Shown here: piece by piece, positions 9,319 through 50,696 of the stretch | Layout: every line of letters begins with the position of its first letter | How positions within the stretch are numbered: the stretch's first letter is position 1 | DNA from: Escherichia coli | GTDB taxonomy: Bacteria > Pseudomonadota > Gammaproteobacteria > Enterobacterales > Enterobacteriaceae | Length of the DNA stretch: 64,000 nt | Strand: one strand, 5' to 3' | Assembly (NCBI RefSeq): GCF_041886205.1 | Contig: NZ_CP169029.1 | Position numbers and translations under genes: made by a program | Notes under the pieces: model-generated | The model's database searches: none | Told to the model about the DNA's origin: nothing | Seen by the model: only the letters and a program-made list of their open reading frames with translations

Positions 9319-9357
9319 AGTGTATTGGTAGCTAAAAAGCCAGGGGCGGTAGCGTGT
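9319..9357 (+). promoter_or_regulatory. JUMPstart element with ops (RfaH-dependent antitermination) site in wza leader
   Basis: cagtgtattggtagctaaaaagccaggGGCGGTAGcgtg; ops core GGCGGTAG at 9345-9352. Confidence 0.85.
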
Positions 9358-23972: not shown

Positions 23973-25343
23973 ATGAAAAAATTAACCTGCTTTAAAGCCT
24001 ATGATATTCGCGGGAAATTAGGCGAAGAACTGAATGAAGATATCGCCTGGCGCATTGGTCGCGCCTATGGCGAATTTCTCAAACCGAAAACCATTGTGTT
24101 AGGCGGTGATGTCCGTCTCACCAGCGAAACCTTAAAACTGGCGCTGGCGAAAGGTTTACAGGATGCGGGCGTCGATGTGCTGGATATTGGCATGTCCGGC
24201 ACCGAAGAGATCTATTTCGCCACGTTCCATCTCGGCGTGGATGGCGGCATTGAAGTTACCGCCAGCCATAATCCGATGGATTATAACGGCATGAAACTGG
24301 TGCGCGAAGGGGCTCGCCCAATCAGCGGTGATACCGGACTGCGCGACGTCCAGCGTCTGGCAGAAGCCAACGACTTTCCTCCCGTCGATGAAACCAAACG
24401 CGGTCGCTATCAGCAAATCAACCTGCGTGACGCTTACGTTGATCACCTGTTCGGTTATATCAATGTCAAAAACCTCACGCCGCTCAAGCTGGTGATTAAC
24501 TCCGGGAATGGCGCAGCGGGTCCGGTGGTGGACGCCATTGAAGCCCGCTTTAAAACCCTCGGCGCGCCCGTGGAATTGATCAAAGTGCACAACACGCCCG
24601 ACGGCAATTTCCCCAACGGTATTCCTAACCCGCTGCTGCCTGAATGCCGCGACGACACCCGCAATGCGGTCATCAAACACGGCGCGGATATGGGCATTGC
24701 CTTTGATGGCGATTTTGACCGCTGTTTTCTGTTTGACGAAAAAGGGCAGTTTATCGAGGGCTACTACATTGTCGGCCTGCTGGCAGAAGCGTTCCTCGAA
24801 AAAAATCCCGGCGCGAAGATCATCCACGATCCGCGTCTCTCCTGGAACACCGTTGATGTGGTGACTGCCGCAGGCGGCACCCCGGTAATGTCGAAAACCG
24901 GACACGCCTTTATTAAAGAACGTATGCGCAAGGAAGACGCCATCTACGGTGGCGAAATGAGCGCCCACCATTACTTCCGTGATTTCGCTTACTGCGACAG
25001 CGGCATGATCCCGTGGCTGCTGGTCGCCGAACTGGTGTGCCTGAAAGGAAAAACGCTGGGCGAACTGGTGCGCGACCGGATGGCTGCGTTTCCGGCAAGC
25101 GGTGAGATCAACAGCAAACTGGCGCAACCCGTTGAGGCGATTAATCGCGTCGAACAGCATTTTAGCCGTGAGGCGCTGGCGGTGGATCGTACCGATGGCA
25201 TCAGCATGACCTTTGCCGACTGGCGCTTTAACCTGCGCTCTTCCAACACCGAACCGGTGGTGCGGTTGAATGTTGAATCGCGCGGTGATGTGCCGCTGAT
25301 GGAAGCGCGAACGCGAACTCTGCTGACGTTGCTGAATGAGTAA
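23973..25343 (+). CDS. cpsG: Phosphomannomutase (colanic acid copy)
   Basis: ORF 23925-25343; canonical start [15 protein letters not shown] (456 aa); TASHNP phosphoserine motif. Confidence 0.93.
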
Positions 25344-25397
25344 TGTCGGATCTTCCCTTACCCCACTGCGGGTAAGGGGCTAATAACAGGAACAACG

Positions 25398-35254: not shown

Positions 35255-35288
35255 CACTGGTAGCGATTAAGCCAGGGGCGGTAGCGTG
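35255..35288 (+). promoter_or_regulatory. JUMPstart/ops element in the O-antigen cluster leader
   Basis: cactggtagcgattaagccaggGGCGGTAGcgtg; ops core at 35277-35284; second copy of the motif seen upstream of wza. Confidence 0.85.
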
Positions 35289-43847: not shown

Positions 43848-44357
43848 ATGTTTTTACATTCCCAAGACTTTGCCACAATTGTAAGGTCTACTCCTCTTAT
43901 TTCTATAGATTTGATTGTGGAAAACGAGTTTGGCGAAATTTTGCTAGGAAAACGAATCAACCGCCCGGCACAGGGCTATTGGTTCGTTCCTGGTGGTAGG
44001 GTGTTGAAAGATGAAAAATTGCAGACAGCCTTTGAACGATTGACAGAAATCGAACTAGGAATTCGTTTGCCTCTCTCTGTGGGTAAGTTTTATGGTATCT
44101 GGCAGCACTTCTACGAAGACAATAGTATGGGGGGAGACTTTTCAACGCATTATATAGTTATAGCATTCCTTCTTAAATTACAACCAAACATTTTGAAATT
44201 ACCGAAGTCACAACATAATGCTTATTGCTGGCTATCGCGAGCAAAGCTGATAAATGATGACGATGTGCATTATAATTGTCGCGCATATTTTAACAATAAA
44301 ACAAATGATGCGATTGGCTTAGATAATAAGGATATAATATGTCTGATGCGCCAATAA
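43848..44357 (+). CDS. wbdQ: GDP-mannose mannosyl hydrolase homolog (Nudix), WbdQ
   Basis: 169-aa [29 protein letters not shown], paralog of gmm. Confidence 0.85.
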
Positions 44358-45787
44358 TTGCTGTAGTTATGGCCGGTGGTACAGGCAGTCGTCTTTGGCC
44401 ACTTTCTCGTGAACTATATCCAAAGCAGTTTTTACAACTCTCTGGTGATAACACCTTGTTACAAACGACTTTGCTACGACTTTCAGGCCTATCATGTCAA
44501 AAACCATTAGTGATAACAAATGAACAGCATCGCTTTGTTGTGGCTGAACAGTTAAGGGAAATAAATAAATTAAATGGTAATATTATTCTAGAACCATGCG
44601 GGCGAAATACTGCACCAGCAATAGCGATATCTGCGTTTCATGCGTTAAAACGTAATCCTCAGGAAGATCCATTGCTTCTAGTTCTTGCGGCAGACCACGT
44701 TATAGCTAAAGAAAGTGTTTTCTGTGATGCTATTAAAAATGCAACTCCCATCGCTAATCAAGGTAAAATTGTAACGTTTGGAATTATACCAGAATATGCT
44801 GAAACTGGTTATGGGTATATTGAGAGAGGTGAACTATCTGTACCGCTTCAAGGGCATGAAAATACTGGTTTTTATTATGTAAATAAGTTTGTTGAAAAGC
44901 CTAATCGTGAAACCGCAGAATTGTATGTGACTTCTGGTAATCACTATTGGAATAGTGGAATATTCATGTTTAAGGCATCTGTTTATCTTGAGGAATTGAG
45001 AAAATTTAGACCTGACATTTACAATGTTTGTGAACAGGTTGCCTCATCCTCATACATTGATCTAGATTTTATTCGATTATCAAAAGAACAATTTCAAGAT
45101 TGTCCTGCTGAATCTATTGATTTTGCTGTAATGGAAAAAACAGAAAAATGTGTTGTATGCCCTGTTGATATTGGTTGGAGTGACGTTGGATCTTGGCAAT
45201 CGTTATGGGACATTAGTCTAAAATCGAAAACAGGAGATGTATGTAAAGGTGATATATTAACCTATGATACTAAGAATAATTATATCTACTCTGAGTCAGC
45301 GTTGGTAGCCGCCATTGGAATTGAAGATATGGTTATCGTGCAAACTAAAGATGCCGTTCTTGTGTCTAAAAAGAGTGATGTACAGCATGTAAAAAAAATA
45401 GTCGAAATGCTTAAATTGCAGCAACGTACAGAGTATATTAGTCATCGTGAAGTTTTCCGACCATGGGGAAAATTTGATTCGATTGACCAAGGTGAGCGAT
45501 ACAAAGTCAAGAAAATTATTGTGAAACCTGGTGAGGGGCTTTCTTTAAGGATGCATCACCATCGTTCTGAACATTGGATCGTGCTTTCTGGTACAGCAAA
45601 AGTAACCCTTGGCGATAAAACTAAACTAGTCACCGCAAATGAATCGATATACATTCCCCTTGGCGCAGCGTATAGTCTTGAGAATCCGGGCATAATCCCT
45701 CTTAATCTTATTGAAGTCAGTTCAGGGGATTATTTGGGAGAGGATGATATTATAAGACAGAAAGAACGTTACAAACATGAAGATTAA
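44339..45787 (+). CDS. manC: Mannose-1-phosphate guanylyltransferase (O-antigen copy)
   Basis: 482-aa [27 protein letters not shown]; paralog of cpsB. Confidence 0.92.
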
Positions 45788-45790
45788 CAT

Positions 45791-47161
45791 ATGAAATCTT
45801 TAACCTGCTTTAAAGCCTATGATATTCGCGGGAAATTAGGCGAAGAACTGAATGAAGATATTGCCTGGCGCATTGGGCGTGCCTATGGCGAATTTCTCAA
45901 ACCGAAAACCATTGTTTTAGGCGGTGATGTCCGCCTCACCAGCGAAACCTTAAAACTGGCGCTGGCGAAAGGTTTACAGGATGCGGGCGTCGATGTGCTG
46001 GATATCGGTATGTCCGGCACCGAAGAGATCTATTTCGCCACGTTCCATCTCGGCGTGGATGGCGGCATTGAAGTTACCGCCAGCCATAATCCGATGGATT
46101 ATAACGGCATGAAACTGGTGCGCGAAGGGGCTCGCCCAATCAGCGGTGATACCGGACTGCGCGACGTCCAGCGTCTGGCAGAAGCCAACGACTTTCCTCC
46201 CGTCGATGAAACCAAACGCGGTCGCTATCAGCAAATCAACCTGCGTGACGCTTACGTTGATCACCTGTTCGGTTATATCAATGTCAAAAACCTCACGCCG
46301 CTCAAGCTGGTGATTAACTCCGGGAATGGCGCAGCGGGTCCGGTGGTGGACGCCATTGAAGCCCGCTTTAAAACCCTCGGCGCGCCCGTGGAATTGATCA
46401 AAGTGCACAACACGCCCGACGGCAATTTCCCCAACGGTATTCCTAATCCGCTGCTGCCTGAATGCCGCGACGACACCCGCAATGCGGTCATCAAACACGG
46501 CGCGGATATGGGCATTGCCTTTGATGGCGATTTTGACCGCTGTTTTCTGTTTGACGAAAAAGGGCAGTTTATCGAGGGCTACTACATTGTCGGCCTGCTG
46601 GCAGAAGCGTTCCTCGAAAAAAATCCCGGCGCGAAGATCATCCACGATCCGCGTCTCTCCTGGAACACCGTTGATGTGGTGACTGCCGCAGGCGGCACCC
46701 CGGTAATGTCGAAAACCGGACACGCCTTTATTAAAGAACGTATGCGCAAGGAAGACGCCATCTACGGTGGCGAAATGAGCGCCCACCATTACTTCCGTGA
46801 TTTCGCTTACTGCGACAGCGGCATGATCCCGTGGCTGCTGGTCGCCGAACTGGTGTGCCTGAAAGGAAAAACGCTGGGCGAACTGGTGCGCGACCGGATG
46901 GCTGCGTTTCCGGCAAGCGGTGAGATCAACAGCAAACTGGCGCAACCCGTTGAGGCGATTAATCGCGTCGAACAGCATTTTAGCCGTGAGGCGCTGGCGG
47001 TGGATCGTACCGATGGCATCAGCATGACCTTTGCCGACTGGCGCTTTAACCTGCGCTCTTCCAACACCGAACCGGTGGTGCGGTTGAATGTGGAATCACG
47101 CGGTGATGTAAAGCTAATGGAAAAGAAAACTAAAGCTCTTCTTAAATTGCTAAGTGAGTGA
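45791..47161 (+). CDS. manB: Phosphomannomutase (O-antigen copy)
   Basis: 456-aa [18 protein letters not shown]; central ~1.1 kb nearly identical in DNA to cpsG. Confidence 0.92.
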
Positions 47162-47379
47162 TTATTTACATTAATCATTAAGCGTATTTAAGATTATATT
47201 AAAGTAATGTTATTGCGGTATATGATGAATATGTGGGCTTTTTTATGTATAACAACTATACCGCAACTTTATCTAGGAAAAGATTAATAGAAATAAAGTT
47301 TTGTACTGACCAATTTGCATTTCACGTCACGATTGAGACGTTCCTTTGCTTAAGACATTTTTTCATCGCTTATGTAATA

Positions 47380-48370
47380 ACAAATGTGCCTTATATAAAA
47401 AGGAGAACAAAATGGAACTTAAAATAATTGAGACAATAGATTTTTATTATCCCTGTTTACGATATTATAGCCAAAGTTGTATCCTGCATCAGTCCTGCAA
47501 TATTTCACGAGTGCTTTGTTAACTGAATACATGTCTGCCATTTTCCAGATGATAACGACGTCATCACAATTGATGGTAAAACACTTCGGCACACTTATGA
47601 CAAGAGTCGTCGCAGAGGAGTGGTTCATGTCATTAGTGTGTTTCAGCAATGCACAGTCTGGTCCTCGGATAGATCAAGACGGATGAGAAACCTAATGCGT
47701 TCACAGTTATTCATGAACTTTCTAAAATGATGGGTATTAAAGGAAAAATAATCATAACTGATGCGATGGCTTGCCAGAAAGATATTGCAGAGAAGATATA
47801 AAAACAGAGATGTGATTATTTATTCGCTGTAAAAGGAAATAAGAGTCGGCTTAATAGAGTCTTTGAGGAGATATTTACGCTGAAAGAATTAAATAATCCA
47901 AAACATAACAGTTACGCAATTAGTGAAAAGAGGCACGGCAGAGACGATGTCCGTCTTCATATTGTTTGAGATGCTCCTGATGAGCTTATTGATTTCACGT
48001 TTGAATGGAAAGGGCTGCAGAATTTATGAATGGCAGTCCACTTTCTCTCAATAATAGCAGAGCAAAAGAAAGAATCCGAAATGACGATCAAATATTATAT
48101 TAGATCTGCTGCTTTAACCGCAGAGAAGTTCGCCACAGTAAATCGAAATCACTGGCGCATGGAGAATAAGTTGCACAGTAGCCTGATGTGGTAATGAATG
48201 AAATCGACTATAATATAAGAAGGCGAGTTGCATTCGAATGATTTTCTAGAATGCGGCACATCGCTACTAATATCTGACAATGATAATGTATTCAAGGCAG
48301 GATTATCATGTAAGATGCGAAAAGCAGTCATGGACAGAAACTTCCTAGCGTCAGGCATTGCAGCGTGCGG
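47380..48370 (+). mobile_element. H-repeat / ISAs1-family transposase remnant (frameshifted, internally deleted)
   Basis: Broken frames spell MELKIIETID..., [91 protein letters not shown]: collinear with H-rpt (ISAs1) transposases but interrupted by stops. Confidence 0.85.
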
Positions 48371-48423
48371 GCTTTCATAATCTTGCATTGGTTTTGATAA
48401 GATATTTCTTTGGAGATGGGAAA

Positions 48424-49089
48424 ATGAATTTGTATGGTATTTTTGGTGCTGGAAGTTATGGTAGAGAAACAATACCCATTCTAAATCAACAAATAAAGCA
48501 AGAATGTGGTTCTGACTATGCTCTGGTTTTTGTGGATGATGTTTTGGCAGGAAAGAAAGTTAATGGTTTTGAAGTGCTTTCAACCAACTGCTTTCTAAAA
48601 GCCCCTTATTTAAAAAAGTATTTTAATGTTGCTATTGCTAATGATAAGATACGACAGAGAGTGTCTGAGTCAATATTATTACACGGGGTTGAACCAATAA
48701 CTATAAAACATCCAAATAGCGTTGTTTATGATCATACTATGATAGGTAGTGGCGCTATTATTTCTCCCTTTGTTACAATATCTACTAATACTCATATAGG
48801 GAGGTTTTTTCATGCAAACATATACTCATACGTTGCACATGATTGTCAAATAGGAGACTATGTTACATTTGCTCCTGGGGCTAAATGTAATGGATATGTT
48901 GTTATTGAAGACAATGCATATATAGGCTCGGGTGCAGTAATTAAGCAGGGTGTTCCTAATCGCCCACTTATTATTGGCGCGGGAGCCATTATAGGTATGG
49001 GGGCTGTTGTCACTAAAAGTGTTCCTGCCGGTATAACTGTGTGCGGAAATCCAGCAAGAGAAATGAAAAGATCGCCAACATCTATTTAA
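48424..49089 (+). CDS. wbdR: Perosamine N-acetyltransferase (hexapeptide-repeat), WbdR
   Basis: ORF 48358-49089; start set at MNLYGIFGAGSYGRE; hexapeptide-repeat acetyltransferase; last gene of the O cluster before gnd. Confidence 0.8.
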   Translation: MNLYGIFGAGSYGRETIPILNQQIKQECGSDYALVFVDDVLAGKKVNGFEVLSTNCFLKAPYLKKYFNVAIANDKIRQRVSESILLHGVEPITIKHPNSVVYDHTMIGSGAIISPFVTISTNTHIGRFFHANIYSYVAHDCQIGDYVTFAPGAKCNGYVVIEDNAYIGSGAVIKQGVPNRPLIIGAGAIIGMGAVVTKSVPAGITVCGNPAREMKRSPTSI

Positions 49090-49289: not shown

Positions 49290-50696
49290 ATGTCAAAGCA
49301 ACAGATCGGCGTAGTCGGTATGGCAGTGATGGGGCGCAACCTAGCGCTCAACATCGAAAGCCGTGGTTATACCGTCTCTATTTTCAACCGCTCCCGTGAG
49401 AAGACGGAAGAAGTGATTGCCGAAAATCCAGGCAAGAAACTGGTTCCTTACTATACGGTGAAAGAGTTTGTTGAATCTCTGGAAACGCCTCGTCGCATCC
49501 TGTTAATGGTGAAAGCAGGTGCAGGCACGGATGCTGCTATTGATTCCCTCAAGCCGTACCTCGATAAAGGTGACATCATCATTGATGGTGGTAACACCTT
49601 CTTCCAGGACACCATTCGTCGTAACCGTGAGCTTTCTGCCGAAGGCTTTAACTTCATCGGTACCGGTGTTTCCGGCGGAGAAGAAGGCGCGCTGAAAGGT
49701 CCTTCCATTATGCCTGGTGGGCAGAAAGAAGCCTATGAACTGGTTGCGCCGATCCTGACCAAAATCGCCGCAGTGGCTGAAGACGGTGAGCCATGCGTTA
49801 CCTATATTGGTGCCGATGGCGCAGGTCACTATGTGAAGATGGTTCACAACGGTATTGAATACGGAGATATGCAACTGATTGCTGAAGCCTATTCTCTGCT
49901 TAAAGGTGGCCTGAACCTCACCAACGAAGAACTGGCGCAGACGTTTACCGAGTGGAATAACGGTGAACTGAGCAGCTACCTGATCGACATCACCAAAGAT
50001 ATCTTCACCAAAAAAGATGAAGACGGTAACTACCTGGTTGATGTGATCCTGGATGAAGCGGCTAACAAAGGTACCGGTAAATGGACCAGCCAGAGCGCAC
50101 TGGATCTCGGCGAACCGCTGTCGCTGATTACCGAGTCTGTGTTTGCACGTTATATCTCTTCTCTGAAAGATCAGCGTGTTGCCGCATCTAAAGTTCTCTC
50201 TGGCCCGCAAGCACAGCCAGCAGGCGACAAGGCTGAGTTCATCGAAAAAGTTCGCCGTGCGCTGTATCTGGGCAAAATCGTTTCTTACGCCCAGGGCTTC
50301 TCTCAGCTGCGTGCTGCGTCTGAAGAGTACAACTGGGATCTGAACTACGGCGAAATCGCGAAGATTTTCCGTGCTGGCTGCATCATTCGTGCGCAGTTCC
50401 TGCAGAAAATTACCGATGCTTATGCCGAAAATCCGCAGATCGCTAACCTGCTGCTGGCTCCGTACTTCAAGCAAATTGCCGATGATTACCAGCAGGCGCT
50501 GCGTGATGTCGTTGCTTATGCGGTACAGAACGGTATCCCGGTTCCGACCTTCGCCGCTGCGGTTGCCTATTACGATAGCTACCGTGCCGCTGTTCTGCCT
50601 GCGAACCTGATCCAGGCACAGCGTGACTATTTCGGTGCACATACTTATAAGCGCATTGATAAAGAAGGTGTGTTCCATACTGAATGGCTGGATTAA
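49290..50696 (+). CDS. gnd: 6-phosphogluconate dehydrogenase, decarboxylating
   Basis: 468-aa [30 protein letters not shown]. Confidence 0.95.

Follow-up and report, generated by a model that had tools for sequence, protein, structure and literature searches.

We analysed a 64,000-nt stretch of the Escherichia coli contig NZ_CP169029.1 (assembly GCF_041886205.1), which is called the window here. It contains the colanic-acid genes, galF, the O-antigen cluster of E. coli O157, gnd, ugd, wzz and the his operon. For gene order and gene products we relied on the RefSeq annotation of two near-identical genomes, O157:H16 Res13-Lact-PEA12-26 (99.9%) and O157:H7 Balcarce_14.2 (99.6%). In the O-antigen cluster, manB and perB (also named wbdR) are separated by a gap of 1262 bp. 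This gap holds the remnant of an insertion sequence (IS), and its position between the two genes agrees with that given by the initial annotation, which was made from the letters of the window. The locus is a local mosaic in which the GC content changes in steps, from 54% in manB to 24% in the following spacer and then to 37% in the remnant and 37% in perB. The features and their coordinates are collected in Table 1.

Table 1. Features of the manB-perB region and of the compared Salmonella locus (window coordinates unless another contig is named)
Feature	Position	Strand	Basis or remark
manC	44339-45787		
manB (phosphomannomutase), upstream neighbour	45791-47161	+	GC 54%
AT-rich spacer, 111 bp, from the manB stop to the left end of the IS	47162-47272	.	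GC 24%; only in O157 clusters
H-repeat (ISEc1-like, ISAs1) remnant, whole	47273-48390	+	global alignment, blastn
Decayed left terminal repeat CTAGGAAAAGAT (ISEc1: CAGGGAAAGAT)	47273-47284	+	alignment to ISEc1
Native RBS (AAGGAG), ATG 47413 and first ~6 transposase codons (MELK..)	47399-47430	+	retained
Internal-deletion junction, exact breakpoints ambiguous	47430-47448	+	alignment to ISEc1
Transposase pseudogene body (DDE_Tnp_1)	47449-48380	+	RefSeq annotation
Decayed right terminal repeat AATCTTGCATTG (ISEc1: AATCTTGCCCTG)	48379-48390	+	alignment to ISEc1
Non-IS spacer, 33 bp, with the perB Shine-Dalgarno GGAG (48412-48415)	48391-48423	+	
perB/wbdR, GDP-perosamine N-acetyltransferase, 221 aa (NeuD/PglB/VioB family)	48424-49089	+	
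gnd	49290-50696		
IS5-family remnant beside the Salmonella O30 perB orthologue	L010 7655-8832		GCA_006054515.1

The remnant is a decayed ISEc1-like copy of the H-repeat, a member of the ISAs1 family, and it lies in the same sense as the O-antigen operon. For comparison, the intact ISEc1 was defined from K-12-type yhhI and ydcC copies, which have exactly 1291 bp in common, bounded by CAGGGAAAGAT and ATCTTGCCCTG. Global alignment to nucleotides 1-1291 of this element gave the limits shown in Table 1. From end to end, the 1118 bp of the remnant are ~84% identical to ISEc1 at the DNA level, and the retained codons are 71% identical at the amino acid level. In a blastn search against PLSDB, the alignment of nucleotides 3-1114 of the remnant (1112 nt) fell into two parts, which together span 1286 bp of intact ISEc1 copies. 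A megablast search detected ISEc1/ISEc5 copies that are ~85% identical to the remnant in 5329 of the 5426 complete E. coli genomes, and the median number of places occupied by ISEc1 copies was 4 per genome. The initial annotation had proposed a TBLASTN search with an intact ISAs1 transposase. Run with YhhI of K-12, it returned two segments with E = 8e-101 (aa 118-378) and E = 4e-29 (aa 68-132). The Pfam domain PF01609 (DDE_Tnp_1) was recognised already on the raw fragment (E = 3.3e-12) and more clearly on the translation repaired in the ISEc1 codon register (E = 2.7e-19; 70 bits with a cut-off of 23). On the same repaired translation, the NCBIfam model NF033564 (transpos_ISAs1, cut-off 70 bits) scored 237.3 bits (E = 2.2e-70) over profile positions 34-313 of 314. 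The assignment to ISAs1/H-repeat transposases, made earlier without database searches, is thus borne out by the tblastn, NCBIfam and megablast results. Spurious or AT-rich low-complexity similarity is ruled out by the same tblastn and NCBIfam values and by the collinearity over 1112 nt. We also rejected a chimera of two IS copies, which the difference between the 5' part (~75% identity) and the body (~85%) might imitate, because both parts are collinear with a single ISEc1 and the 5' non-coding part diverges faster between intact ISEc1 copies as well.

In K-12, ISEc1 (H-rpt) is represented by yhhI in RhsB, by ydcC and by ybfL. The O157 remnant resembles these copies in its 5' UTR, ribosome-binding site (RBS), start codon, DDE_Tnp_1 domain, stop codon and CAGGG-type ends. 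It differs from them in its length (1118 vs 1291 bp), in the deletion of the N-terminal domain, in its stops and frameshifts, and in its terminal repeats, whose mutual match has fallen from 10/11 to 7/11. ISEc1 nucleotides ~163-344 are gone from the remnant, and this internal deletion of ~174 bp corresponds to transposase residues 7 to ~67. Both flanks of the gap are collinear with ISEc1, which shows that the internal deletion suspected earlier is real. The deleted stretch covers most of PF13808, the N-terminal DDE_Tnp_1-associated domain (aa 8-94 in intact YhhI). A Pfam search of the frame-repaired translation gave no match to PF13808, and the codons on either side of the gap are still collinear with ISEc1. 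The absence of this domain is a loss by deletion; it marks a remnant and not a non-member of ISAs1. In the three-frame translation of 47380-48383, the collinear H-repeat transposase peptides hop between frames and are interrupted by stops, as the initial annotation described. We found six in-register stops (at 47524, 47670, 47799, 47967, 48027 and 48239) and four 1-nt deletions (after 47642, 48184, 48272 and 48278). The original transposase stop codon TAA is still there at 48378-48380. Owing to the deleted N-terminal domain, the six stops, the four frameshifts and the erosion of both terminal repeats, the remnant can neither transpose nor give rise to a transposase.

RefSeq flags the transposase pseudogene as frameshifted, containing an internal stop, incomplete and missing its N-terminus in O157:H7, O157:H16 and a third lineage. 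The last flag is inaccurate. Since the left end, the 5' UTR and the start codon persist upstream of the internal deletion (47273-47430), the pseudogene is internally deleted and not 5'-truncated. The region that keeps the left end, 5' UTR, RBS and ATG 47413 scores 93, and the maximum in shuffles was 39. Within this 5' region, which is otherwise ~75% identical to ISEc1, a 26-nt stretch at the RBS and ATG is nearly identical to it. This preservation could be due to chance, or translation at this site could lessen polarity on perB. ATG 47413 opens a 36-codon open reading frame, MELKIIETIDFYYPCLRYYSQSCILHQSCNISRVLC (window 47399-47522). The interval 47380-48370, to which the remnant had been assigned earlier, has the decayed left end, the 5' UTR and the native RBS with ATG 47413 before it or at its border. 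That interval overlaps the element and is too short by ~107 bp on the left and 20 bp on the right (~130 bp in total).

The terminal inverted repeats of intact ISEc1 (CAGGGAAAGAT and CAGGGCAAGAT) match at 10 of 11 positions and are of the CAGGG type. The corresponding ends of the remnant (CTAGGAAAAGAT and CAATGCAAGAT) match each other at 7 of 11 positions. A search for terminal inverted repeats had been suggested together with the TBLASTN search, and its outcome was mixed: the ends can be recognised by alignment to ISEc1 and only in this way. The de novo inverted-repeat search of 47200-48450 did not recover them because they are too decayed, and the 27 pairs that it returned look like AT-rich noise. 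A perfect 10-bp inverted repeat (TTGCGGTATA at 47213-47222 and TATACCGCAA at 47257-47266, 34 nt apart) is present in the spacer between manB and the IS. We found no target-site duplication flanking the remnant. It turned out that three intact ISEc1/ISEc5 copies, the ISEc1 of K-12 included, have no target-site duplication either. Therefore, its absence cannot separate a simple insertion from an IS-mediated rearrangement.

The remnant differs from ISEc1 at 13.1%, 12.2% and 19.7% of the first, second and third codon positions, respectively. Between intact ISEc1 copies, the corresponding differences number 2, 3 and 28 sites. The near-even distribution in the remnant indicates that most of its substitutions arose without selection on the protein. 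The substitutions are biased from GC to AT (89 vs 54). We compared four O157 clusters, namely those of the window, O157:H7, O157:H16 and STECUZB006. Up to 12 of 1118 sites differed in the remnant, 5 of 1449 in manC and 4 of 666 in perB; the 33-bp spacer before perB was invariant in all four. The four sequences can be compared position for position without length differences, so the deletion and the frameshifts appear to be common to them. STECUZB006 lacks two of the six stops, those at 47670 and 47967. Judging by the even substitution across codon positions and by the higher polymorphism than in the flanking genes among O157 lineages, the remnant is unconstrained DNA that has long been drifting neutrally and is still decaying. 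Most of the decay preceded the expansion of the cluster within E. coli, by which time the element was already dead.

The full 1262-bp interval was found in only 307 of the 5426 complete E. coli genomes, the same number as carry perB. RefSeq lists an ISAs1 family transposase pseudogene in all 307. This pseudogene is the same object in the same position (99.6-99.9% identity to the O157:H7 and O157:H16 genomes), but its annotated span is 47449-48380 only, whereas the element occupies 47273-48390. No complete genome with perB lacks the remnant, which is a stable marker of the O157 cluster. "A remnant H-repeat unit" in the O157 O-antigen cluster is said to have been reported by Wang and Reeves in 1998 (Infect Immun 66:3545). 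The feature is thus already known, being annotated in RefSeq and apparently reported when the cluster was first sequenced; our result is a confirmation with refined boundaries, and its significance is small beyond bookkeeping. In a full-text literature search on H-repeat and O157, only Reeves et al. 2013 was found, which covers the remnant of Salmonella D2 (PMC3715488). The study of O157 clusters by Iguchi et al. 2011 does not mention the remnant. We also searched one genome per species (GTDB; no O157 strain) with a 20-mer across the deletion junction, and the same remnant was not seen, although the demand for an exact match makes this a weak test. Three matches of the 20-mer (in Pontibacter, Phocaeicola and a Pseudomonadota MAG) are due to chance and have no further homology to the window. 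In PLSDB, the E. coli "plasmid" NZ_CP114132.1 (438,722 bp, pig gut) carries the O157 remnant at 99.6% identity at 136237-137354 and accounts for the single match of perB on plasmids. The record is likely to be a piece of chromosome or a replicon with the wrong label.

The product of perB, an acetyltransferase of the NeuD/PglB/VioB type with a left-handed beta-helix, is 100% identical to a protein cluster named GDP-perosamine N-acetyltransferase [Escherichia coli]; the gene is called perB in RefSeq, and the protein scores 171 bits with TIGR03570 (cut-off 160.8). When the open reading frame of wbdR is called mechanically, it begins with TTG 48358 and has an extension of 22 codons ahead of ATG 48424. 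This extension is an artefact of ORF calling. The true start is ATG 48424, because RefSeq starts the gene there, GGAG is found 8 nt upstream, and the homology with Salmonella begins at 48420. In annotation, the TTG-extended ORF should not be called. According to the initial annotation, the extension (48358-48423) reads through remnant sequence. This is correct for its first 33 nt (48358-48390), which belong to the IS; the other half (48391-48423) is the non-IS spacer.

Outside E. coli, the closest PerB (72% aa identity) is found in Salmonella enterica O:30 serovars (Nijmegen, Ago, Urbana and others). The order in Salmonella O30 is gmd-fcl-nudix-manC-manB-gnd-wbdR-[1.18 kb]-ugd-wzz-his, and nothing at this perB locus is homologous to ISAs1. 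The 1.18-kb gap after wbdR is taken up to about 70% by a decayed IS5-family element. Over ~800 bp, this IS5 remnant shares ~70% identity with IS5-family transposase genes of E. coli, and no gene is called in it. Many Salmonella O30 assemblies break in the first codons of the perB orthologue, giving partial proteins of 195-214 aa at contig ends. In Salmonella O30 as in O157, the acetyltransferase gene is separated from the rest of the cluster and has a decayed IS next to it. The two loci differ in the IS family (IS5 vs ISAs1), in its side (downstream vs upstream of the gene) and in location (gnd-ugd vs manB-gnd). Two short enterobacterial contigs from Logan, ERR13656168 (L014) and SRR33471205 (L015), encode PerB homologues with 65% and 63% aa identity. 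In both contigs, the gene lies between the 3' end of gnd and ugd, and there is no trace of ISAs1. In L015, the perB homologue is followed by a MaoC-dehydratase-like gene. Among the arrangements compared, perB is upstream of gnd only in E. coli O157, and the three non-E. coli arrangements have the order gnd-perB-ugd.

The account that we consider probable is that the remnant is a dead and neutral H-repeat, that it is a scar left by the relocation of perB, and that perB is expressed by read-through. On this view, the remnant would have been left behind when perB came to lie upstream of gnd, at the 3' end of the cluster. The claim of the initial annotation that the remnant marks a past recombination or assembly point is likewise inferential. 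It gains support from the position of perB after gnd without ISAs1 in Salmonella O30 and in the two contigs, since, among the arrangements compared, O157 alone has perB upstream of gnd and the H-repeat lies exactly at that junction. We infer the direction of the rearrangement from the three non-E. coli arrangements only. In the O-antigen cluster of Salmonella enterica group D2, an H-repeat remnant is found at the D1/E junction, and it has been proposed that this cluster arose by a recombination which the H-repeat mediated (Reeves et al. 2013, PMC3715488). The D2 cluster can be proposed, by analogy, as a precedent for an H-repeat at an assembly junction. Both systems have a decayed H-repeat within an O-antigen cluster, at the boundary of segments of different ancestry. 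They differ in that both parental clusters of D2 are known and are near-identical to its flanks, whereas for O157 no parental junction is available, and a mediating role of its remnant is a proposal. The donor junction cannot be traced, because the perB regions of E. coli and Salmonella are homologous only within the coding sequence (48420-49055). With homology limited in this way, and with target duplications absent even from intact copies, an IS that caused the rearrangement and an IS that arrived later as a neighbour would look the same.

An active H-repeat could have inserted into a manB-perB gap that already existed in O157 and then decayed, with no part in the placement of perB. A donor for such an insertion was at hand, since ISEc1 is ubiquitous in E. 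coli. Both ends of the element are present, as after a simple insertion, and non-IS spacers persist on both sides (111 bp and 33 bp). However, the position of perB after gnd in the three non-E. coli arrangements means that some rearrangement did happen here. Moreover, the divergence of ~12-13% at codon positions 1 and 2, compared with a polymorphism of at most 1.1% among O157 clusters, means that the element had existed long before the cluster expanded in E. coli. We therefore regard an insertion unconnected with the placement of perB as unlikely. If the remnant is the scar of the relocation, it records how the gene for N-acetyl-perosamine, which is serogroup-defining, entered the galF-gnd interval in E. 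coli, as opposed to a position beyond gnd in Salmonella O30.

Antitermination by RfaH and ops operates in O-antigen operons. We found two exact ops elements (GGCGGTAGCGTG) in the window, with ~0.1 expected by chance. One of them (9345-9356) is upstream of the colanic-acid genes, and the other (35277-35288) is between galF and the first gene of the O157 cluster. The established role of RfaH and ops makes read-through the simplest model: perB would now be expressed from the operon promoter by read-through of the 1.26-kb untranslated gap, and RfaH recruited at ops 35277 would suppress polarity across it. Inside the element there are two weak terminator-like hairpins (0.7 expected by chance), which count against read-through. 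The promoter scan of 47100-48500 gave 6 sigma-70-like sites, with 5.7 expected from shuffled sequence, and none was convincingly placed before perB, which is in line with read-through.

It is also conceivable that the 3' end of the remnant (its last ~270 bp), either by itself or with the 33-bp spacer, was co-opted as a perB promoter and that the element has been kept for this reason. The wbdR clone of Martinez-Gomez et al. 2018 included 300 bp upstream of the gene, described as "containing its promoter" (PMC5981137). The forward primer used, gaagttcgccacagtaaatcgaa, corresponds to window sequence from 48124 onwards, within the remnant, so that all of the upstream DNA except 33 bp is remnant. 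A single-copy Tn7 insertion of this construct made N-acetyl-perosamine in Brucella (PMC5981137), which agrees with a promoter in this segment, as does the invariance of the 33-bp spacer in the four O157 clusters. However, the promoter in the Brucella construct was assumed and not mapped, and read-through from the vector is possible. Sigma-70-like sites are no more common here than in shuffled sequence, and the best promoter candidate found by hand, which spans the IS end, matches at 8 of 12 positions. In addition, the remnant gains polymorphism faster than the flanking genes. Such co-option is thus quite improbable, and read-through from the operon promoter is the model that we prefer.

The window manB is 97.7% identical to the resident colanic-acid cpsG (23973-25344), and this homology ends at the stop codon. 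Compared with O157:H16 Res13, manB differs at 37 sites, while manC and gnd show 0 differences. At 36 of these 37 sites, manB is the same as the cpsG of the window itself, and the tract lies within 45947-47059. It looks as if manB has recently been gene-converted by the resident cpsG. The gnd gene matches that of an O157:H16 strain exactly, but 51 of its 1407 sites differ from O157:H7 and 61 from STECUZB006, so the window comes from a non-H7 O157 lineage. Among these clusters, gnd is far more polymorphic than the adjoining O-antigen genes.
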